From the sequence record MK509462: DNA of 64,000 nucleotides, one strand, 5' to 3'. This document shows, one piece after another, positions 1,019-61,019 of the stretch. Numbering within the stretch: the stretch's first letter is position 1; each line of letters begins with the position of its first letter. A program made the translations under genes and the position numbers. This stretch comes from Shigella phage MK-13. The notes under the pieces were generated by a model, which ran no database searches, was not told the DNA's origin, and worked only from the letters and a program-made list of their open reading frames with translations.

Positions 1019-1026
1019 TATTTATA
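1019..1026 (-). promoter_or_regulatory. T4-type late promoter core TATAAATA (minus strand) upstream of the tail-tube family gene
   Basis: Plus-strand tatttata = TATAAATA on minus strand; GGAG Shine-Dalgarno about 12 nt before the start codon. Confidence 0.5.
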
Positions 1027-30636: not shown

Positions 30637-32550
30637 TTATTCATCCTCAGTTTCAAACAGGCAAACATCGCTAAACCAGGTTTTGCGGTAATCGGCGGCC
30701 TCATCACCGAAGCCATTCTTCAGTGACTGTTGATAGCCATCGTCCAGCGTGACCGTCGTAGTATACGCATCCAGGTTGTTTAGAATACGTTTGAAGTCTT
30801 CAGTGCTGTTACCGCCAAGACCTTTCAGATATTTCTTCTTCGTGATCTTCTTGGCATCAGGCGTCTTCAGGAACTCCTCATACTCGGCGTTGTTCATGAA
30901 CTCATGCATCACCTTACCACACCATACACGCATGTAAGGGGTGCGCAGGAGCTTCAGCCTGCCCTGACGGACGTACTCCGGCCAGTAGGTGCAATACAGG
31001 GTGATCAACAACCCACGGATGTGAATACCGTCATCGTCCGCATCGGTAGCCACAACAGTCTGTGGGTAGCGGCTGATGTCAAGTGGCTGACCGGGCACTG
31101 CGCCGCCGTGAATCGTACACAGGTTCTTGAACTCTTCATTGTTCATCACCTTTGTGCGCGGGGCGTTCAGGCAGTTGATGAACTTACCACGAAGCGGGAA
31201 CAATCCGATCTTTTTGGTGTCACGGGCGTTCAGGATAGGATTGGAGGCGCTATCACCCTCGGTCAGTAGCAGGGAGCATCCGCTGCGGTCACCACGGGCG
31301 GTCGCCGGGTAATACTTCTCAATCTCACGATAATCCCGCTTGCTGATATCCTTCTTGGCCTTTTCAAACTCAGCATCATCCTGCTCATTGCGCAGGGAAG
31401 CCAGTTCTTTGCTCAGACCAGCCATAACGAACTCAAGCGCCTTGCGGATGAGTTTGTCACTCGGTTTGTACGACGTACCGAACTGGCTTACAGGAGTGGT
31501 CATGCGCTCCTTGGTCTGGCTGTCAAAGCGCGGGTTGTTGATGTCGACGGCAATGAACAAGGACATGTGGTTCTTGATCATGGCAGGTTTCAGCTCGGTC
31601 TTGAACTTCTTCACCAGCTGAGGACGAATCGCAGCCACGATCTGGTCGGCGACATAATCAACGTGAGGACCACCGATGTGGGTGGCAATAGAGTTCACGT
31701 ATGATGCGTGCATGAACGTACCGGATGAAGGGGCTACAGCAACCGACCATTCACCAGATTCATCAACAGCGGAACCAGCATGGAAGTAATCAACGAAGTG
31801 ACCAAAGCGGTCAATCCGGATTTGCTTCCCGTTCAGCACAACCTTCAGGCGCGGGTTACACGCAGCCACTTCAAACGCGCGGCGATAGATCATCAGCAGG
31901 TTGTTCTGGTCAAGCCCTTTGACGCCCAGGCGAGCATAGTCAGGAATCCAGGCGATGGTGGTGCCGAACTCTTTCGGTGTATTGCTGATGACCGGATTAG
32001 ACTTCTTGCTCATGTTGTCTTCAAACAGCTGGGCATAAGACTTCTTGCCGTCGCTGGTAGCAACACGGAACCACTTTGAGAACACGTTGACGAGCGAAGC
32101 CCCTTCACCGTTCTGGCCACCAGACTTCTGGTTGTTGTACTCTTCGTCTTCGTCGTTGAAGTTGCTGCCTGCATACAGGGAGCCGAAGAGCATCTCAGGC
32201 AACCACTCGTTGGTAACACCGTGCTTCACAACAGGGATGCCCCCGTTATCGGCCACGATGATTTGACCGTTCATCGGGGAAACCGTGACAGTGATTTCCG
32301 TCAGGGATTTACCCTCAGGCGTCTTGCTGTGGTCAACACAGTTGGTGATGATTTCATCAAACTGTTTGATCAGGGCGGGGGAGTACTCAAAGTTGTCACG
32401 GAAAATGACTTGGTCTTTGGTTGGGTCGTACACCCACACCGTACCAACAGACGAACGGATGCTGCCCAGATGACGCTCTGGGCGAAGGAGGATATGCTCG
32501 ACGTGAGTGAGCTTCTTGTACTTGCGTTCAATATCAATTTTATCAGACAT
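30637..32550 (-). CDS. DNA topoisomerase II large subunit (T4 gp39-like, GyrB-like ATPase + Toprim), single unsplit ORF
   Basis: 637 aa; N-terminal GHKL region (HILLRPERHLGS, FDEIITNCVDH, VADNGGIPV) as in T4 gp39; continuous reading frame. Confidence 0.75.
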   Translation of the reverse strand: MSDKIDIERKYKKLTHVEHILLRPERHLGSIRSSVGTVWVYDPTKDQVIFRDNFEYSPALIKQFDEIITNCVDHSKTPEGKSLTEITVTVSPMNGQIIVADNGGIPVVKHGVTNEWLPEMLFGSLYAGSNFNDEDEEYNNQKSGGQNGEGASLVNVFSKWFRVATSDGKKSYAQLFEDNMSKKSNPVISNTPKEFGTTIAWIPDYARLGVKGLDQNNLLMIYRRAFEVAACNPRLKVVLNGKQIRIDRFGHFVDYFHAGSAVDESGEWSVAVAPSSGTFMHASYVNSIATHIGGPHVDYVADQIVAAIRPQLVKKFKTELKPAMIKNHMSLFIAVDINNPRFDSQTKERMTTPVSQFGTSYKPSDKLIRKALEFVMAGLSKELASLRNEQDDAEFEKAKKDISKRDYREIEKYYPATARGDRSGCSLLLTEGDSASNPILNARDTKKIGLFPLRGKFINCLNAPRTKVMNNEEFKNLCTIHGGAVPGQPLDISRYPQTVVATDADDDGIHIRGLLITLYCTYWPEYVRQGRLKLLRTPYMRVWCGKVMHEFMNNAEYEEFLKTPDAKKITKKKYLKGLGGNSTEDFKRILNNLDAYTTTVTLDDGYQQSLKNGFGDEAADYRKTWFSDVCLFETEDE

Positions 32551-34813: not shown

Positions 34814-35635
34814 TTAGACCACAGCCATTTCACAACGGGTGGAGGCCACAGAGTGGCCGTCGGCGTCTTCAACAACACACCAGTACTCACCCTCGTCTGC
34901 GGCATCAACTGCAGTGATAACCAGGCTCGCAGTTGCAGCAGTGGCGTTGGCGCCAGCATCGATCACCACACCTTCACCGCCAGGGACATCAGAGAAGTAC
35001 CAAGCATATGTGTATGGGGTAGTGCCGCCTGTAGCAGCGATGGTGAAGGTTGCGTCTTCACCTGCTGTTACATCCTGAGAAGCAGCCAGATCAGTAGACA
35101 GAGCCAGCGCACCCGCCACTGTGATGACGGTAGAGTCAGTGTGACCACCTTCGATGGTAACACCGTACACAGTCACAGAACCAGGAGCCAGCAGCTTGAA
35201 TTTACCACCGCCGATGTGTACAGCTTTGGTGATGTCACCAGAGTACCAGTTGACACCCTGGTAGGTCGCGTTCGCCGGAGCGACGGTCGCCAGCAGTTCA
35301 ACAACCTGACCGACTTCACCACCAGCAGTCGCAGGGGTGATGGTCAGGCCAGTGGTCAGCACGGCGCTTGGGTCGTGGATTTCGTAAGAGATCTCGAAGC
35401 CGATAGGCTTGGTTGGATCAACTTTGGTCACGCCATCAGCCTGAAGATTGCTCTTGGTCAGAAGTGCATCCAGGCCTTTACACTCGGTCAGGATCTCGTC
35501 AGGGTCTTGGTTAAGACTGGTCTTTTCCCAACCCTTGGCAGTGCCTGTCACGGTGTGCAGACGCTCGGTTTCCGGTTTGTTGCGAACAACTTCCGGTGCT
35601 ACTAATACAGTGATTGTTGGCATGGTTTCCTCCAC
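34814..35635 (-). CDS. Ig-like domain protein (Big_2 plus I-set-like domains; Hoc-like surface decoration candidate)
   Basis: 273 aa; Big_2-like APANATYQGVNWYSGDITKAVHIGGGKFKLLAPGSVTVYGV and Ig-like ...ASLVITAVDAADEGEYWCVVEDADGH... Confidence 0.55.
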   Translation of the reverse strand: MEETMPTITVLVAPEVVRNKPETERLHTVTGTAKGWEKTSLNQDPDEILTECKGLDALLTKSNLQADGVTKVDPTKPIGFEISYEIHDPSAVLTTGLTITPATAGGEVGQVVELLATVAPANATYQGVNWYSGDITKAVHIGGGKFKLLAPGSVTVYGVTIEGGHTDSTVITVAGALALSTDLAASQDVTAGEDATFTIAATGGTTPYTYAWYFSDVPGGEGVVIDAGANATAATASLVITAVDAADEGEYWCVVEDADGHSVASTRCEMAVV

Positions 35636-35994
35636 TCGCCCAAATCGTTGTTCAGAGCCATTAATAGCTCGTTATCTGGTTCGTATGAACCGGAACATAA
35701 ATCATCACGCCATACGCCTAACGTCAACAAAGCAGCCTTGAGGCGCGGAAGCTGAGACTTATCCGTTTTCAACACAAGCATACGACAGACTGCTTCTGCT
35801 TCGAACGTATTGAAGAGAGTGATCAGCTGATTCAATATGAGCCTTGGACTCTTGCCAGGCACAAATCTCTTCAATGATTGGTTAATTAGCGAAATTCGCT
35901 GTATGTCTGTCAGCAACTCATCCCGTGAGATAGAATCAACAATGTAATGCCTCAAGGCATACTCTATCAGATTGCTTTCGTCAACGATAACCAT
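35602..35994 (-). CDS. Hypothetical protein
   Basis: 130 aa ORF. Confidence 0.4.
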   Translation of the reverse strand: MVIVDESNLIEYALRHYIVDSISRDELLTDIQRISLINQSLKRFVPGKSPRLILNQLITLFNTFEAEAVCRMLVLKTDKSQLPRLKAALLTLGVWRDDLCSGSYEPDNELLMALNNDLGEWRKPCQQSLY

Positions 35995-36023: not shown

Positions 36024-36449
36024 TTATTTAATCTGCAATTTTTCGATCAGTTGAGCAATCAACGTAATGCGATCTTCTACTGTGATACCCAAAGGTTCAG
36101 CCAGCAGCTTCAGGTCGTCCATACCCAGAAGGTTCAGAGTATCTGCTGTAATGTTGGTGGAGATGACAGCGCCCTTCTCAAACGGCTTGCCATACTTGTC
36201 GCGACCATAACGCTTCAGCGTGGACGCCAACCCTGGAAGCTCCTGGAGGAGTTCTTTGGTGCCGTCTTGGTATTCGCACACCCAACCGTACCCGCCAGCG
36301 TAGACGACGCCTCCATCCCCGCCTGTAGGCATGTTGTCTACAGCGCGTTGCAGGTAGGTAGGTAACACACCTTCCTCCTTCGCCTGGATGTCATCAACGG
36401 GGGCTGCAGTTGCGGTTTCAACTTTCTTGGTTTCGGGTTTCTTCGCCAT
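36024..36449 (-). CDS. Hypothetical protein
   Basis: 141 aa ORF with basic N-terminus. Confidence 0.4.
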   Translation of the reverse strand: MAKKPETKKVETATAAPVDDIQAKEEGVLPTYLQRAVDNMPTGGDGGVVYAGGYGWVCEYQDGTKELLQELPGLASTLKRYGRDKYGKPFEKGAVISTNITADTLNLLGMDDLKLLAEPLGITVEDRITLIAQLIEKLQIK

Positions 36450-36723
36450 GATTGGTTCTCCTATAGACTGTTATGTATTTACCACAGCAATTGCAGCAGT
36501 ATACGTGCATTGCATACCCATCATCTGTGAAGTCACAACCACCACAGCGACAGAACAACTTCACGAACTGGTCGCCATGCACTTCACGGGGAGGGAATTG
36601 TTTGTGGGAGTATTCCCTGGTCTCTCCTTCGAATTGGAAAGAGTCAATCAGGAACTTCGTTATCCGGCGGTGTGGTCCATATGCTTGCTGGGCATATTTG
36701 AAGTAGACATCAGTGGTTAACAT
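36418..36723 (-). CDS. Cys-rich small protein
   Basis: 101 aa; CRCGGCD...CCNCCGK pattern. Confidence 0.35.
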   Translation of the reverse strand: MLTTDVYFKYAQQAYGPHRRITKFLIDSFQFEGETREYSHKQFPPREVHGDQFVKLFCRCGGCDFTDDGYAMHVYCCNCCGKYITVYRRTNHGEETRNQES

Positions 36724-36740
36724 ATCGACCTCAAAGAAAA

Positions 36741-36756
36741 GGAGGCCGAAGCCCCC
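36741..36756 (-). terminator. Hairpin (ggaggc-cgaa-gccccc) with minus-strand T-run
   Basis: GC stem between minus genes; TTTTCTTTG follows on the minus strand. Confidence 0.4.
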
Positions 36757-36774
36757 TTGCAGGTTTACTGAAGA

Positions 36775-38337
36775 TTACTTGTACAGGCCAGTGACGTCAA
36801 TAGACTTGTGCTGGCGGTTGTACTCAGCAGTGTAGTCATCCAACACCAGGTATTCGCAGCAGCGGATTTTACTGGAGCCATAATCGTTGGTGATAGACAC
36901 GATATCTTTCGGGTTCAGCTTACAGCGAACAACGCGCTGGCCAACAGAACCGAAACACTGTTTCAGGTAGGCCAGGGAGCACACATGCAGACCGTATGAA
37001 CACAGGTCGGAGTTGTTGTCGTTCACGAATGAGCGAGCCATGCGCACGATAGTGCCTGGTGCGTTGCTGATCGTGTTGCTGTGTTTGTCCATGTAGTTGC
37101 CGCGCACCGATTTGTAGAGGATGATGTCACCATCGTCGTCAATTTCGATGTCGGAGTACGCCATGAACTCATAGATGCGCCCAGACTGAACCAGAGCAGC
37201 CGACGGGTTCTGGAACATTTTGTCCATAAACTTCGCCATGCGGTCCAGGTTGTGGAAGTCACCCTTCAGCATCAGCGCCAGTACACGCTTGGCGATGGAT
37301 GTGCCTGTGATGTCATGGCCAGACCAGCGGACACGGTTGTCAGACACGTCTACCAGACCTTCAGCGTACTTCGCGATGGCATCACGAGGGCGCATCAGCG
37401 AGTATGCCAGCTTCACGTCTTTGTCTTTGATCGCCTGTACGATGCGGTCATATGCTGGATGTGAAGTGGTGATCGTTTCCGGCTTGCCGTCAATTGCGAT
37501 AACAACGCTGTCAGGCAGAATCAGGATCTGGTGTTCGTTCAGGAACACGTCCAGGTCTTTCGCGCCGAAGTCCTGCTTGGTCTTCTTGTCATCAGCCACT
37601 TCTTCAACTTCTTTGATAGCGACAGCGAATTCCACAGAAGACAGAGCCAGGCGCAGGGTGCGGCCGAGGATGGCATCGAAGTAACCAACACGACGACGGG
37701 CATCCAAGGATCCACGAATAGGATAGGTTTCCCCGTCAACCACAACGCTGATTTCAACGTTGCTCGGAACTTTATCCGCACCTTCTGACAGCGCCACAGA
37801 AATTTCTGCCATCTTACCGATAGCTTCAACGCCGAAAGCGCGGCTGTTTCCTTCAACAGGAGTCAGTTCGGATTTTTCAAAGAAAGCCCCTTTGAAATTG
37901 CCGTCGTTAGTGAGACACAGATACTTGTTGTGGTTCGGTAGATATGCCCCAACATACCATTCTGAGTCATCTTTGTCTTTGGCCGTGCCGCCCGGTTGCA
38001 CCTCGAACACTTCCTGCTCTTCCTGCTTGATAGGAGAGATCACAGTTACCTTGTTTTCCTCCTCAGTAATCCGGACCAGCAGAGCGCGAGCAATGGTCTT
38101 GGCGCTTACAGCAAAGAACTCAGCCAGGGCGCGGTTGCTTTCGCCAGCCTTGCTCTTCACCTGAATCTGCTGAATCTCTTCAGTGGTCAGAGATTTCAGC
38201 GATAACGGGTTAACACCGAGTTCCGTGTCTGCAACACGTTGTACAGTCGAGCGGGGTATGCCCAACAGAGTGGCAATTGCGCTCTGGCTCATGCCTGCCT
38301 TCAAATGCTTGAGGATCTTTTCGTCAATCTTGTTCAT
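36775..38337 (-). CDS. Protein with tandem N-terminal helix-turn-helix motifs, in the rIIB position downstream of rIIA
   Basis: ORF 36775..38424; start moved to the internal Met to avoid overlap with rIIA; two HTH-like segments (MSQSAIATLLGIPRSTVQRV; SNRALAEFFAVSAKTIARAL); rIIB identity not established. Confidence 0.4.
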   Translation of the reverse strand: MNKIDEKILKHLKAGMSQSAIATLLGIPRSTVQRVADTELGVNPLSLKSLTTEEIQQIQVKSKAGESNRALAEFFAVSAKTIARALLVRITEEENKVTVISPIKQEEQEVFEVQPGGTAKDKDDSEWYVGAYLPNHNKYLCLTNDGNFKGAFFEKSELTPVEGNSRAFGVEAIGKMAEISVALSEGADKVPSNVEISVVVDGETYPIRGSLDARRRVGYFDAILGRTLRLALSSVEFAVAIKEVEEVADDKKTKQDFGAKDLDVFLNEHQILILPDSVVIAIDGKPETITTSHPAYDRIVQAIKDKDVKLAYSLMRPRDAIAKYAEGLVDVSDNRVRWSGHDITGTSIAKRVLALMLKGDFHNLDRMAKFMDKMFQNPSAALVQSGRIYEFMAYSDIEIDDDGDIILYKSVRGNYMDKHSNTISNAPGTIVRMARSFVNDNNSDLCSYGLHVCSLAYLKQCFGSVGQRVVRCKLNPKDIVSITNDYGSSKIRCCEYLVLDDYTAEYNRQHKSIDVTGLYK

Positions 38338-38368: not shown

Positions 38369-41125
38369 TTATGCCCTGATGATGGAATTTGAAATAACGT
38401 CCAAGTAATCCGAAGAATTTTCAATCGGGTTCAGAGCGCTTGGTTTGTAGTTCTCTTTCAAGAACCGGATAACACGGTGGCGCTCGATGGTCAATCGGTT
38501 TTCCCGCCTTGCTTTCAATGACGGAGTCCTCGATATATCAAACGGCGTAAATCCATGAGACCGCAACACATCCGAAGCGTAGCCAAAGATCTGTAGCATC
38601 TGATGTTCTGAACGGAAGATCTTTTCGTCACGCTCGTTGGCGTACAAATTCACGTTAAGAGAATGTATTGTGTCCTGGAAATGGCTAAAGCGGCGCTTGT
38701 CATTGATTGAAACCGGGGCTTTCGCCAGGCTTTGGTAATGACGTACAGTCTGCTCATCCAAGATATCGTCCACGACTTTCATTAACTTGTTGTAACGGCT
38801 GACCAATTTGCCATAACGATCGTCTTCAACATCACCAAACGCCTGGTGAACCAGACGGCTCCCGTATTTTAAACGATCCGCCCCAAGGCGCATGCGGCGG
38901 TATGATTCCAGTATGCGCCTGGCGCTATCGCGCTCCAACATAGGCTTCACGTTTTCCAACATGATCTTCAGGATTTCATCGATCGGGATGAAGACTTCTG
39001 GGAACTTCTTCATCATTGGCACGGATTTACGGCGAGCCAGGAAGATCCTTCTGTGAACGTTCAGTATGTCGCTGATATACACTGGCTTGCCTTCATCGTC
39101 AACACTGACTGCGTGCTCGTACAGAGATTTACGAATACCCCGAGCCGCCGCCGTCGTCAACGTTCTGTCCATCACCTGATGGATACACTCATGGCCGGAC
39201 ACCTCAATGTAGACGATGCGCTCGCCCTTGTTGATAATATCTGAGATCTGGTCGCCCGTCAGTTCTTCTTGCAGGCAGATATCGAAGTTGCTGGATGTGA
39301 ACGGAAACAGGCCAGGGTCTTTGGTGACCGGAGGCGTGACATACGTCAGTTCGTTCATGAACTTGACTTCAGCAGGCTCCAGCACCGCACTCAGCCAATC
39401 GACGAACTTGTCAGCGAAGCACAGATAATCAACCGTCGTTTCTTCTTTACCAATCCAAGTTTCAAAGAAATCATAGAGAGCCTGAGAATTATTGAACGCA
39501 GGGTTGTCCTTAGATTGGTTGCGCTTGGTGACATAGGATGTGTTCGGCTTGGCCACGATGACCATCGTTCCTGTATCTTTCAGCTGCTTGATCTTCAGAT
39601 TACGTGCACGAACACTATCTTCGATCACCACAGTAACGTGCTGTCCACGATCAATCCACTTCTGGATTTCTGAAATGGTCAGGGTACTGGACTCACCCCA
39701 GTCATAGAAGATCTCCATAGAGAACGGCGATGACAGCTCATTGAACGGCGCGGTATGGCCATAATCGCGATCAATCTCAACAGGCAGCGGGTAACGGTAA
39801 TATGAATCATGGAAGCGCTTGTCCGCCGGGTATTCCTTTTCAACCATCTTACGGAACCCGCTACCGAACATTTCGCTCAGTCTTGCCTTCTCCATATACA
39901 GGGCAAGAGGACCACGCTTACACGCCAACTCCAGGTCGCGCATCTTTTCTGCCAAGATTGCATTGGCGGTGCCCTTAAACTCCTCAGAGAGCGTCTCACG
40001 CGTGAATTCGTCATACGACAGGTCTTCACGCGACGGCGGTACGTTCAGGGAACCGAGTTCGAAGAACGTATAGGACGACGGGAACTTGCTCATGATGGAA
40101 GCAGTGTCCGGGTCCAGCTGGTCCAGGTCAATCGGGTACGACACACCACCCATCACAGCATAATGGGTGTTCCCCTGGCCTTTCGGCTGGATGTACGTAT
40201 TGTTGACCTTGAAATCATAACTGATATCTTCCCAGCTGAAGCGGTATGAAGCGTTCTCAACAATTGGGCGTTGTTCAGGGCGCATAACACGACCAAGACG
40301 GACCAGTTCATCGGAGAATGCAGAGAAACGAGCGTTCTTCACCGGGATCTTCACCGTCATACCGTTGAACTCATCAGTGTCTTCCGGCTTTGGATCACGG
40401 GTTTCAAGATCTTTGGTGATCAGATCAACAGTCGGGATGCGCTTGGCGTTCAGGTACATCAGGAAGCGATGGAGTTTACCGTTCATGCGGCTTTCCACAG
40501 TGAACGAATCCGATACCGCAAATGGTGATTTGGAGCCAAGACCGAATGCCCCAATCTGATCATCATCTTCTTCCTTCGTACTGTGGAAGAGGGTGGTGTA
40601 CAATCCAGGCGTACGAATGATCTCGCCGTCTTCACGACGGAACACCAAAGACCCATTGTAGAACCCTGGAATACCGATGACTTCGGCCGAATCGGGGATC
40701 TCGTCTTCCTTCACGACCATGTTGCCTTCCAGCAGCACCTCATCTTCCTGCGCTGGGATGGCTTCACCGATGATCTTCTCAAGCGGCAGACCGATACCGT
40801 AATCACGGATTTCCAGCCATGGCTCAAAGTCATCAGGCAAATGCACAACAACTCGTGTGCCCTTCGGTGCCAGGTATTTGCTGTGGCGGGCAGGAGGGGG
40901 AGTGAGAGGCGCGTAGTGGGATGCTACCATGCGGTGCATACGATCACGCATGCCATGGGAGTCGATGGCGTTACAGGTGGTTTCACGCAGGGCTGCAGCC
41001 TCTTTGTAACGATACAATGATGAGAACAGAGTCTCAAACATCTTGTCGTTCATTTTGACGTTAAACGCCTGCCCCTGAATGGAAGACGACGAGCGGATGA
41101 AGTGCTCGGACTTGCGCATTTTCAT
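38369..41125 (-). CDS. rIIA: rIIA-like protein with N-terminal GHKL (HATPase_c) ATPase domain
   Basis: 918 aa; N-box ETTCNAIDS, G1 box DYGIGLP, G2 box GAFGLGSKS; within 6 kb of the topoisomerase genes, as in the T4 rII-60-39 region. Confidence 0.55.
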   Translation of the reverse strand: MKMRKSEHFIRSSSSIQGQAFNVKMNDKMFETLFSSLYRYKEAAALRETTCNAIDSHGMRDRMHRMVASHYAPLTPPPARHSKYLAPKGTRVVVHLPDDFEPWLEIRDYGIGLPLEKIIGEAIPAQEDEVLLEGNMVVKEDEIPDSAEVIGIPGFYNGSLVFRREDGEIIRTPGLYTTLFHSTKEEDDDQIGAFGLGSKSPFAVSDSFTVESRMNGKLHRFLMYLNAKRIPTVDLITKDLETRDPKPEDTDEFNGMTVKIPVKNARFSAFSDELVRLGRVMRPEQRPIVENASYRFSWEDISYDFKVNNTYIQPKGQGNTHYAVMGGVSYPIDLDQLDPDTASIMSKFPSSYTFFELGSLNVPPSREDLSYDEFTRETLSEEFKGTANAILAEKMRDLELACKRGPLALYMEKARLSEMFGSGFRKMVEKEYPADKRFHDSYYRYPLPVEIDRDYGHTAPFNELSSPFSMEIFYDWGESSTLTISEIQKWIDRGQHVTVVIEDSVRARNLKIKQLKDTGTMVIVAKPNTSYVTKRNQSKDNPAFNNSQALYDFFETWIGKEETTVDYLCFADKFVDWLSAVLEPAEVKFMNELTYVTPPVTKDPGLFPFTSSNFDICLQEELTGDQISDIINKGERIVYIEVSGHECIHQVMDRTLTTAAARGIRKSLYEHAVSVDDEGKPVYISDILNVHRRIFLARRKSVPMMKKFPEVFIPIDEILKIMLENVKPMLERDSARRILESYRRMRLGADRLKYGSRLVHQAFGDVEDDRYGKLVSRYNKLMKVVDDILDEQTVRHYQSLAKAPVSINDKRRFSHFQDTIHSLNVNLYANERDEKIFRSEHQMLQIFGYASDVLRSHGFTPFDISRTPSLKARRENRLTIERHRVIRFLKENYKPSALNPIENSSDYLDVISNSIIRA

Positions 41126-45903: not shown

Positions 45904-45939
45904 GATAATATCCTCACTTTATAGGTGAGGATATTTATA

Positions 45940-59357: not shown

Positions 59358-59386
59358 TGATACACCTCCTGTACAAGTTCAGATCT

Positions 59387-59394
59387 ATTTATAC
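59387..59394 (-). promoter_or_regulatory. T4-type late promoter core TATAAATA (minus strand)
   Basis: Plus-strand tatttata = TATAAATA on minus, followed by an AGGAGG RBS and ATG. Confidence 0.5.
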
Positions 59395-59786: not shown

Positions 59787-59870
59787 TGGAGCGGGAGAGC
59801 AGGATTCGAACCTGTCCAGTGATCGTCGCCGATGATCAGTCGGCTACTGTCCAACCCCTATGGCTCCCGC
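59787..59870 (-). tRNA. tRNA-like gene, atypical (anticodon unresolved; GAT if the central hairpin is the anticodon arm)
   Basis: Hand-folded: 7-bp acceptor gcgggag/ctcccgc, T-loop TTCGAAT, encoded CCA, 5-bp hairpin gccga-ctGATca-tcggc; one extra nucleotide between T-stem and acceptor and a long variable region. Confidence 0.35.
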
Positions 59871-60093
59871 GAAATAAGGACGGGCTTCACACCCGATTGA
59901 GCATTTGATCTGCCGTAGCCCAACTCCCCGCGCTTCTCAGCGCCGATTGGTTAACTGGCGACCAGTGCCTTCTGGTTCGATCTCCTGGAACTTTACAGGC
60001 TTTGCGCCCGACCATTTCTGGAAGTTGGGGCATCGTTTCCGATGTGGAGTCACCCCATTTTATACACAGCGTGGCTGCAACGCTTACTGTGTT

Positions 60094-60177
60094 TGGTGTG
60101 AGTGGATGGATTCGAACCACCGCGCTGTTACGGGGAGATTTACAGTCTCCTGCATTCGACCGCTCTGCCACACTCAC
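60094..60177 (-). tRNA. tRNA-Tyr (anticodon GTA), class II with long variable arm
   Basis: Hand-folded: acceptor gtgagtg/cactcac, anticodon arm ggaga-ctGTAaa-tctcc, T-arm ggtgg-TTCGAAT-ccatc, encoded CCA; anticodon loop matches E. coli tRNA-Tyr from memory. Confidence 0.7.
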
Positions 60178-60187
60178 ATTTGGTCTA

Positions 60188-60251
60188 CCGCTGCGTGCTG
60201 GGCCACGCTCGAGGACATCGGCCATCCTTCCTCAGCTAATCCACGCAGCGG
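60188..60251 (-). other. Long hairpin (10-bp inverted repeat ccgctgcgtg / cacgcagcgg, about 44-nt loop) adjacent to tRNA-Tyr
   Basis: Inverted repeat seen directly; possible processing signal or small RNA. Confidence 0.35.
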
Positions 60252-60434
60252 CAGATTTGTTTCAGAGTGTCCGGTGTAGCAACCCGTGAGGTGCGCACTA
60301 CTGTAGCCTCTACACTCTGAATTTGGTGGGCGTTACTATCGTCGTCTTCGGATTCCGTTCGGCTATTGGACAGAGGCTTGGAGCTTGTCGGTCGCGTACT
60401 TCGTGCCTATTCACTTTCGTTCACACCCATTGTC

Positions 60435-60510
60435 TGGCGACGATGACAGGACTTGAACCTGTGACATATGGATTAACAGTCCACCGTTCTACCGACTGAA
60501 CTACATCGTC
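60435..60510 (-). tRNA. tRNA-Asn (anticodon GTT)
   Basis: Hand-folded canonical cloverleaf: acceptor gacgatg/catcgtc, D-arm gttc/gaac, anticodon loop ctGTTaa, T-arm acagg-TTCAAGT-cctgt, encoded CCA; near-identical core to E. coli tRNA-Asn from memory. Confidence 0.75.
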
Positions 60511-60939
60511 TTTATCCGTGCTTGTTCGCTTCAATCGCCCTTAATTGGGCATCAGCGTCAGCTTTGGTGTCATGTGTACCAAGAACCTTCGTCTTGGTGT
60601 GGTCAAGGACAACCCACTTGTCACCTCGCTTTTCAACAAACTCGACAATCTCTTTGTTGTCGGTAGCGAGGCCATCCCACTCAGCAATAAAATCACCGAA
60701 CGTTTTCATCATACTCACCAATTGTTTATTGAACAACTGGTTTATTTAGGTGCTCCCAAGGCGGTATTTGAATCCCGCGATCCCATCACACCTGCCGTAG
60801 ACCGGAGCTTGCTGGCAGTCCAACAATGTTTGGCGGGGTTTGAGGATTTTCACCTCACCTGCTGGGTTTGGCCGCCCAGCCGTTCTCTATGAGGATTCGC
60901 TGTCCGGACAACTATCCCTTAAACTATCGCCCCTCAATT

Positions 60940-61019
60940 TGGTTGGAGGAGAAGGATTCGAACCTTCAACGGCTGCCGCCATCCCCTCAGGGAATGTCTA
61001 CCCCTTCCATCATCCTCCA
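60940..61019 (-). tRNA. tRNA, isotype uncertain (possible anticodon TGA)
   Basis: Perfect 7-bp acceptor tggagga/tcctcca, perfect T-arm gaagg-TTCGAAT-ccttc, encoded CCA; D and anticodon arms fold ambiguously by hand. Confidence 0.45.

Follow-up and report, generated by a model that had tools for sequence, protein, structure and literature searches.

Between the topoisomerase II genes and the rII genes of Shigella phage MK-13 lies a gene whose product carries immunoglobulin (Ig)-like domains, and this location raises the question of whether the product is a decoration protein of the virion and, if so, where on the particle it is placed and what it may do there. The window analysed is a 64,000-nt stretch of this phage (record MK509462). 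A sequence-only reading of the window had proposed a capsid or tail decoration protein that mediates adhesion, and had regarded the position of its gene as unusual for such a protein.

The Ig gene and its neighbourhood

Across the 5.5 kb around the Ig gene, identity is 98.2% with Salmonella phage P46FS4 and ∼96–97% with Shigella phage phiSboM-AG3 (AG3); both are members of Agtrevirus, a genus of the Aglimvirinae (Ackermannviridae). The same region matches 230 more records, for the most part Ackermannviridae phages of Salmonella, Escherichia, Dickeya and Klebsiella. Judged by these sequence matches, the window is Agtrevirus (Ackermannviridae) phage DNA.

The gene had been given as the mechanical open reading frame at 34814..35635 (minus strand, 273 codons from a GTG at 35635). 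This ORF is real and its frame is under strong purifying selection, with dN/dS values of 0.05–0.13 in all three domains of the protein when compared with four relatives. Its 5′ end, however, is 12 nt too long, the ATG at 35623 being the likelier start. The annotations of P46FS4, LIMEstone1, RC-2014, AG3 and Croc_ER14 give a CDS of 810 nt, a length that nearly all annotated relatives use, and in the MK-13 stretch it corresponds to a start at ATG 35623. Because the relatives use the 810-nt CDS and a GGAGG motif precedes this ATG (Table 1), the real product is probably the 269-aa protein, for which a mass of 27.6 kDa and a pI of 4.3 are computed.

Table 1. Features of the Ig-gene cluster and its surroundings, in order of transcription; coordinates refer to the window.
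Feature	Coordinates	Strand	Description and basis
rIIA	38369..41125	minus	First in transcription order
rIIB	36775..38337	minus	After rIIA
Intrinsic-terminator-like hairpin	36739..36758	minus	Directly after rIIB; 8-bp stem with 5 GC pairs, then T run (terminator scan)
101-aa ORF		minus	Between hairpin and DUF7440 gene
DUF7440 gene	36024..36449	minus	141 aa; two genes upstream of Ig gene; Pfam PF24224 (E 9.4e-48), PHROG 3795
DUF7207 gene	35602..35994	minus	130 aa; upstream of Ig gene, 3′ end overlaps its start by 22 nt; Pfam PF23837 (E 1e-27)
Shine-Dalgarno GGAGG	35629..35633	minus	5 nt upstream of ATG 35623; overlaps the alternative GTG; read directly from the sequence
Ig-like virion protein CDS	34814..35623	minus	269 aa plus TAA stop; ORF list, PHROG 215, relatives' 810-nt CDS
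N-terminal lineage-specific domain, presumed virion-docking module	35369..35623	minus	Residues 1–85; conservation, occurrence pattern
Big_2 (bacterial Ig-like group 2) domain	35108..35368	minus	Residues ∼86–172; Pfam, PDB sequence match, AF2, Foldseek
Distal I-set/Ig_3 immunoglobulin-like domain	34817..35107	minus	Residues ∼173–269; Pfam, PDB sequence matches, AF2
77-aa ORF		minus	Begins four bases past Ig-gene stop
Topoisomerase II large subunit gene	30637..32550	minus	

Every gene in this stretch is on the minus strand. The strong terminator-like hairpin after rIIB, an element annotated as a terminator in LIMEstone1 too, is the upstream edge of a tightly packed cluster that holds the Ig gene and runs from 36723 to ∼33959. 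The 77-aa ORF is followed by a gene for a histone-like protein, by three ORFs that are small or unknown, by a MazG-like gene and by the two topoisomerase II subunit genes. The gene had been described as lying among replication genes between the topoisomerase and rII genes; that location is right, but the immediate neighbours are small unknown ORFs and histone-like and MazG-like genes rather than genes of replication enzymes. Every relative examined, two distant metagenomic contigs among them, has the same overlapping pair of DUF7207 gene and Ig gene, which may point to a functional link between the two genes.

In the orthologs, rIIB is followed by a small ORF, the DUF7440 and DUF7207 genes, the Ig gene, another small ORF and the histone-like gene, with topoisomerase II at some distance beyond. 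Limestonevirus, Kuttervirus, a Klebsiella phage, Erwinia phage Bue1 and two divergent metagenomic contigs all retain this order, and the placement of the Ig gene is therefore old and family-wide. The premise that such a placement is unusual for a decoration protein proved weak. Structural genes are scattered in T4-related genomes, where T4 hoc itself has rnlB, segE and uvsW as its neighbours, so that the location of the Ig gene is not odd. In agreement with such scatter, baseplate, tape-measure-region, head-completion and tail-needle genes are mixed among DNA-metabolism genes in the same window, and structural genes were described as dispersed through the genome of LIMEstone1 (PMC3296691). The position between rIIB and topoisomerase thus says nothing on the function of the Ig protein.

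Promoter scans gave no clear signal for the cluster. A T4-type late promoter (TATAAATA, at most one mismatch, minus strand, 33–39 kb) was not found ahead of it, and a sigma-70 promoter scan returned hits at chance level. The ‘late promoter’ annotated in LIMEstone1 consists of TAAATA only, and a search of the literature returned no Ackermannviridae transcriptome.

Domain architecture of the Ig protein

The protein consists of an N-terminal domain followed by two Ig-like domains (Table 1). Of the Pfam models that match the latter, Big_2 (PF02368) passes its cut-off marginally (23.2 bits versus 22.8), whereas Ig_3 (PF13927, 39.6 bits versus 30) and I-set (PF07679, 30.4 bits versus 23.7) are both clearly above theirs. 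An AlphaFold2 (AF2) model was built on a 22-sequence alignment, and a single-sequence model (pLDDT 33) was set aside. The model predicts two β-sandwich domains at residues ∼85–269 with an overall pLDDT of 85–97, the values being 83–94 for the Big_2 domain and 91–97 for the distal domain. Foldseek searches with this model returned a Big_2-CBM56 protein (7quz, E 4e-10) as well as the Ig tandems of titin, NCAM2 and Robo. Sequence searches of the PDB matched the Big_2 region to the same Big_2-CBM56 protein (E 2.8e-9), and the I-set domain to N4 gp17 (9e99_J, E 1.8e-10 over 92 residues) and T5 pb10 (8zvi and 5lxk, E 2.7e-7). The earlier call of a Big_2 and an I-set-like domain was thus correct, Pfam scores, confident β-sandwich models and Foldseek Ig matches all concurring, and structure prediction returned the expected Ig fold with high confidence. 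The distal domain is very acidic (pI 4.05), and no catalytic domain was detected in the protein.

Over its full length the ORF matches the profile of PHROG 215, ‘structural protein with Ig domain’ (E 7.6e-81, ORF residues 2–273), and the RefSeq names of the orthologs follow this wording. NCBIfam held no model for the Ig protein or for either of its two upstream neighbours. The number and type of Ig-like domains vary with lineage. Proteins of 269–274 aa with the Big_2 and I-set pair occur in Agtrevirus, Limestonevirus and Kuttervirus as well as in some Klebsiella phages, whereas more distant family members carry one, two or three Big_2 domains instead: one in Erwinia phage Bue1 (175 aa), two in Serratia phages (258 aa) and three in several metagenomic relatives (339–349 aa). 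In the relatives of 258 and 339–349 aa the slot of the distal I-set domain is filled by one or two Big_2 domains.

Presence and placement on the virion

The gene family is already known: it has been annotated, has appeared in virion proteomes since 2011–2012 and has been used as a scaffold for peptide display. AG3 ORF006, LIMEstone1 ORF006, selz GP94 and Vi01 gp3 (PHROG 215) are the same gene as that of MK-13, and the first three of these orthologs have the same 269 aa and the same three-part architecture, with no substantive difference. Vi01 gp3 is listed as an Ackermannviridae core gene (PMC10892097), and the CBA120 paper does not mention the Ig gene.

Mass spectrometry of purified particles places the protein on the virion in three relatives. 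In AG3, ORF006 (267 of 269 residues identical to the MK-13 protein, 99%) was identified in CsCl-purified virions as band E, at 27.6 kDa, one of the six strongest bands on SDS-PAGE, the other intense bands including capsid, sheath and tube proteins (PMC3121705). In LIMEstone1, ORF6 (ORF006, 96% identical, labelled ‘confirmed structural protein’ in its record) was detected in CsCl-purified virions with four peptides and 21.9% coverage, and was named Hoc by the authors (PMC3296691). In Sajous1, the syntenic gp83 (84% identical) gave 43 spectra from CsCl-purified virions (PMC10892097), a count that is unfit for estimating copy number because the portal and sheath counts are equal. These detections come from three phages in three laboratories and concern orthologs at 99%, 96% and 84% identity. 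Judging by the virions of such near-identical relatives, the Ig protein of MK-13 is apparently present in the particle, and in many copies.

The exposure and placement of the protein have been addressed in Salmonella phage selz (SenALZ1), whose GP94 is 86% identical to the MK-13 protein. The correspondence is confirmed by the numbering as gene 94 in the annotation of that laboratory and by fusion primers that encode MPTITVLVAPE. GP94 was picked there as an Ig-like display scaffold and tolerated N-terminal fusions to an Avi-tag, a gold-binding peptide and seven cell-penetrating peptides, with plaques, latency and burst size unchanged in the fusion phages (PMC10654057). The Avi-tag was biotinylated on purified phage, demonstrating that the N-terminus is accessible on intact particles (PMC10654057). 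With the gold-binding peptide on GP94, 10 nm gold was ‘found on the tail’ by TEM and wild-type phage reportedly bore none (PMC10654057). The tail placement is documented there by one sentence and one figure, for an ortholog from another genus (Kuttervirus) and without quantification (PMC10654057).

On this evidence the MK-13 protein is very probably a surface-exposed Ig-like virion protein. The earlier proposal of a capsid or tail decoration protein is supported by the orthologs in CsCl-purified virions, by the surface exposure of GP94 and by the predicted Ig fold, and the virion proteomes bear out the expectation that such a protein should be found there. The best explanation as a whole, with a probability of about 0.6, is an accessory surface-exposed structural protein that is placed on the tail. 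We weight the tail above the capsid because gold would be expected on the head if a protein of high copy number whose N-terminus is accessible were located there. The resemblance of the Big_2 region to Ig domains of tail proteins, seen in PHROG profile matches, counts for the tail as well, whereas the category of the PHROG 215 family, ‘head and packaging’, counts against it.

A capsid decoration is the strongest of the competing explanations, and we consider it possible but doubtful. In that case it would be functionally analogous to T4 Hoc or T5 pb10: a single copy would be bound through the N-terminal domain to the middle of every gp23-like hexamer, or would lie flat as N4 gp17 does, and the Ig domains would point outward. 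Both of the best solved-structure matches of the I-set domain, N4 gp17 and T5 pb10, are capsid decorations, the ‘Decorating protein’ of Gostya9 is the second-best fold match in BFVD (TM 0.47–0.51), the profile matches of the distal domain include PHROG 2973 and PHROG 4069 (‘Hoc-like head decoration’), and the LIMEstone1 authors chose the label Hoc. Also consistent with a capsid location are the abundance in AG3 virions, which is compatible with roughly one copy per hexamer, a major capsid protein that is a T4 gp23 homologue (E 1e-63), a genome without a T4-type Hoc or another annotated head decoration gene, and an acidity like that of Hoc (pI 4.3 versus about 5). The likeness to capsid decorations is, however, confined to the generic Ig domain, which PHROGs of tail proteins match too, and searches detected nothing that resembles the anchor domain of Hoc or that of pb10. 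Moreover, the gold label of the selz ortholog was reported on the tail and not on the head, although its N-terminus is accessible and its copy number presumably high. A PDB search with the major capsid protein returned T4-family entries only, and no structure of an Ackermannviridae capsid or Ig protein was found in the PDB or the searchable literature.

A role as a genuine tail fibre, or as a receptor-binding protein required for adsorption, is improbable. Many relatives are labelled ‘tail fiber’, ‘tail fiber (whisker) protein’ or ‘putative tail protein’, but these ‘tail fiber’ labels derive from generic Ig-domain similarity, and the AG3 record cites the N4 ‘32 kDa protein’, which is the capsid decoration protein of N4. 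The gold label reported on the tail of selz would fit a fibre, as would the intact Ig gene that each of the eight genome-reduced selz mutants of the phage collection carries. Retention in these eight reduced genomes does not amount to essentiality, however, because the gene may never have been a deletion target. A protein of 27.6 kDa with two predicted monomeric Ig-type β-sandwiches, and with no coiled coil, β-helix or trimerization module in the model, argues against a fibre, and host range in the Ackermannviridae is ascribed to tailspike proteins (PMC10892097). Identities of 84–96% across phages of Salmonella, Shigella, Dickeya and Klebsiella are the opposite of what is expected of a receptor-binding protein, and bulky N-terminal fusions left plaques and growth unaltered. 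Public records conflict on the protein, for which ‘tail fiber’, ‘tail protein’, ‘Hoc’ and ‘structural protein with Ig domain’ are all in use; on the present evidence, it is not a tail fibre, and not a Hoc of the T4 type either. Finally, a non-structural protein, abundant in or secreted from infected cells and merely co-purifying with virions, would agree with the few clearly non-structural proteins (rIIB, DNA ligase) in the LIMEstone1 and Sajous1 virion preparations and with a gene that lies among non-structural genes without a recognizable late promoter, but is highly improbable given its independent detection after CsCl purification in three phages by three laboratories, its place among the six strongest AG3 bands beside capsid, sheath and tube proteins, and the labelling of the tagged protein on intact purified particles, visible by TEM.

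Comparison with other Ig-like decorations and a proposed role

Comparison with Hoc-like proteins, which had also been suggested, supports a likeness in kind, as Ig-like surface decorations, but not membership of the T4 Hoc family. Like T4 Hoc, the MK-13 protein is a small, acidic, non-enzymatic protein of the virion surface in which a string of Ig-like domains is joined to one presumed non-Ig anchor domain, and hoc is also encoded outside the main morphogenesis block. Hoc differs in having three Ig domains instead of two and in carrying its conserved non-Ig domain at the C-terminus, where residues 281–376 form the capsid-binding domain (PMC10385173), whereas that of the MK-13 protein is N-terminal (residues 1–85). 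Hoc also sits on the capsid, whereas the sole localization data for the MK-13 family, those on selz, point to the tail. BLASTP of the MK-13 protein against T4 Hoc gave weak similarity in the Ig region (E 0.029) and nothing to the C-terminal domain, and a phmmer search with the latter against six-frame ORFs of P46FS4, the closest complete genome, gave a best E-value of 2. With no Hoc capsid-binding domain detected and the domain order reversed, sequence comparison places the MK-13 protein outside the T4 Hoc family.

The order of T5 pb10 is the same, with the binding domain at the N-terminus and the Ig-like domain at the C-terminus (PMC5292684), and its Ig domain is detectably similar to that of MK-13 (E 2.7e-7). 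A phmmer comparison with pb10 (8zvi, 5lxk) aligned query residues 170–266 with chain residues 70–155 only, and the N-terminal domains gave no detectable similarity. The MK-13 protein differs further in its extra Big_2 domain, and pb10 is proven to lie at the centres of capsid hexamers. N4 gp17 (the ‘32 kDa protein’, PDB 9E99) is a multi-domain Ig-like virion decoration and the top solved-structure sequence match, a similarity cited already in the AG3 record; a single domain of the MK-13 protein matches it, and that protein's N-terminal domain is not predicted to be Ig-like in a low-confidence model. In lambda gpV, with its C-terminal Big_2 domain, and in T5 pb6, the Ig domain is attached to the tail tube protein itself, whereas the MK-13 protein is free-standing and belongs to a contractile-tailed phage. 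By analogy with Hoc, pb10, gp17 and the gpV Ig domain, the MK-13 protein would serve as an Ig-like decoration of the surface, with no enzymatic role.

Conservation is highest in the N-terminal domain, where the mean pairwise identity across 22 homologs is 80%, compared with 51% in Big_2 and 45% in the distal domain, although in a pairwise comparison with the Klebsiella phage Croc_ER14 its conservation does not exceed that of the Ig domains. The N-terminal domain was found in 281 phage records, at one copy per genome, and forms only ∼8 genuine clusters at 50% identity among 1.84 billion representative proteins, in which it invariably occupies residues 1–85 with Ig-like domains next. The long repeat proteins P0061–P0064 (SpaA, WD40 and other repeats), which also surfaced as candidate relatives, were rejected as repeat-inflated false positives. 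A conserved domain present once per genome and joined to variable Ig domains is the pattern expected of a docking module. Given the conservation gradient, the varying Ig count and the fixed position, residues 1–85 may be the virion anchor. The AF2 model of this domain has a pLDDT of ∼40, at which no docking surface can be described.

On the favoured tail placement, a mechanism can be proposed in which the 85-residue N-terminal domain, restricted to phages of the Ackermannviridae type, would dock the Ig protein onto the virion, so that many copies coat the surface of the tail (the sheath) and the Big_2 domain, followed by the I-set domain, projects from the virion into solvent. The Ig domains might then touch surface polysaccharides such as capsule, O-antigen or mucin glycans weakly and reversibly, and such contacts could hold the particle near susceptible cells, as has been proposed for other phage Ig-like domains. 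An adhesive role of this kind, which had been part of the sequence-only reading, may be carried over from the proposals made for Hoc and other phage Ig-like domains; a search of the literature for a binding, adsorption or mucus-binding study of any family member returned none.

The DUF7440 gene that lies two genes upstream offers a possible origin for the N-terminal domain. The N-terminus of the Ig protein matches the first half of the DUF7440 profile (PF24224) weakly, at 23.8 bits against a cut-off of 25 (E 5.2e-5), the N-termini of its homologs score 18.5–24.4 bits, and there is also a weak match to PHROG 3795. An alignment of the two families by hhalign covers 53 columns with P = 0.011 and a probability of 4%, which is weak as well, and pairwise BLASTP with the neighbouring DUF7440 protein was insignificant. 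These scores are a weak lead towards a paralogous relationship between the N-terminal domain and the DUF7440 gene product. Taken further, and tentatively, the Ig protein might represent a separate class of Ig-like decoration, convergent with Hoc and not related to it: a free-standing, high-copy protein on the contractile tail of a myovirus, anchored by an Ackermannviridae-specific N-terminal domain that arose by partial duplication of the DUF7440 gene, with outer Ig domains that are swapped between genera to fit surface glycans.

The location on the particle, for which one gold-labelling experiment indicates the tail and analogy the capsid, bears on phage display and on the therapeutic engineering of Ackermannviridae phages. 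The N-terminal domain is a compact, lineage-restricted putative docking module that is amenable to structural characterization. Against the docking role, an N-terminus that is accessible and tolerates tags sits less easily with a buried anchor.

The Ig gene and its upstream neighbours

Both DUF7440 and PHROG 3795 count the 141-aa protein encoded two genes upstream of the Ig gene as a full member. In an hhalign comparison, the Ig protein's N-terminal domain, which also hits the two profiles weakly, aligns with this protein over 53 columns (P = 0.011), and the two share the motif N.P..V.G..GW...E.L.E..GL..L. This likeness may have arisen by partial duplication and fusion. In all relatives examined, including the divergent metagenomic contigs L013 and L014, the Ig gene is directly preceded by the DUF7207 gene, whose end runs over the Ig start; this constant pairing suggests that the two are coupled in translation or are functional partners. 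In the phiSboM-AG3 record, the DUF7207 counterpart is annotated as similar to cyanophage Syn9 gp189. The 250-codon ORF antisense to the Ig gene is most likely a shadow ORF, because all homology and selection evidence favours the minus-strand frame.

Features in and around the locus (window coordinates unless a record is named)
Feature	Position	Strand	Remarks
DUF7440 gene	36024-36449	-	141 aa, two genes upstream of Ig gene
Ig protein N-terminal domain	35369-35623	-	partial match to DUF7440 gene product
DUF7207 gene	35602-35994	-	PF23837
Antisense ORF	34853-35605	+	250 codons, wholly within Ig gene
Second small Big_2-containing ORF	L013 8895-9368		157 aa, directly 3′ of Ig gene; Logan ERR12379741, metagenomic
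Stretch in selz_232L	MZ375357 3856-4127		reduced selz genome
Intrinsic-terminator-like hairpin	36739-36758	-	strong; 8-bp stem, 5 GC pairs, T run
Late-promoter motif TATAAATA	1019-1026	-	just upstream of gp54-like baseplate gene
Late-promoter motif TATAAATA	45932-45939	-
Late-promoter motif TATAAATA	59386-59393	-	upstream of small ORF preceding tail-needle-knob gene
tRNA genes (Ile-GAT, Tyr-GTA, Asn-GTT, Ser-TGA)	59787-61019	-	four, clustered

The locus in relatives and reduced genomes

The Ackermannviridae-like contig L013 is without a full-length DUF7440 gene and carries a second small Big_2-containing ORF, and the DUF7440 ORF of L014 is just 48 aa. The Ig gene is 100% intact in all eight genome-reduced mutants of Salmonella phage selz in the phage collection (118.6–143.6 kb). 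Judging by its gene numbers, which jump over 91, selz_232L seems to have lost its equivalent of the small gene that immediately follows rIIB (window 36418-36723). A weak phmmer match (E 0.0035) between the I-set domain and tail spike ORF5 of Salmonella phage P46FS4, the nearest relative with a complete genome (at ∼8098 of that record, outside the window), hints at an Ig-like module in this tail spike.

Transcription signals

Of the 51 nt that separate rIIB from the following gene, the hairpin takes up most, leaving no space for a promoter; the cluster 3′ of it, to which the Ig gene belongs, may rely on read-through or internal promoters. Perfect matches to the T4-type late-promoter motif number only three in the 64-kb window, all on the minus strand, and none of these is close to the Ig gene. 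The stretch surrounding the tRNA cluster is ORF-poor.
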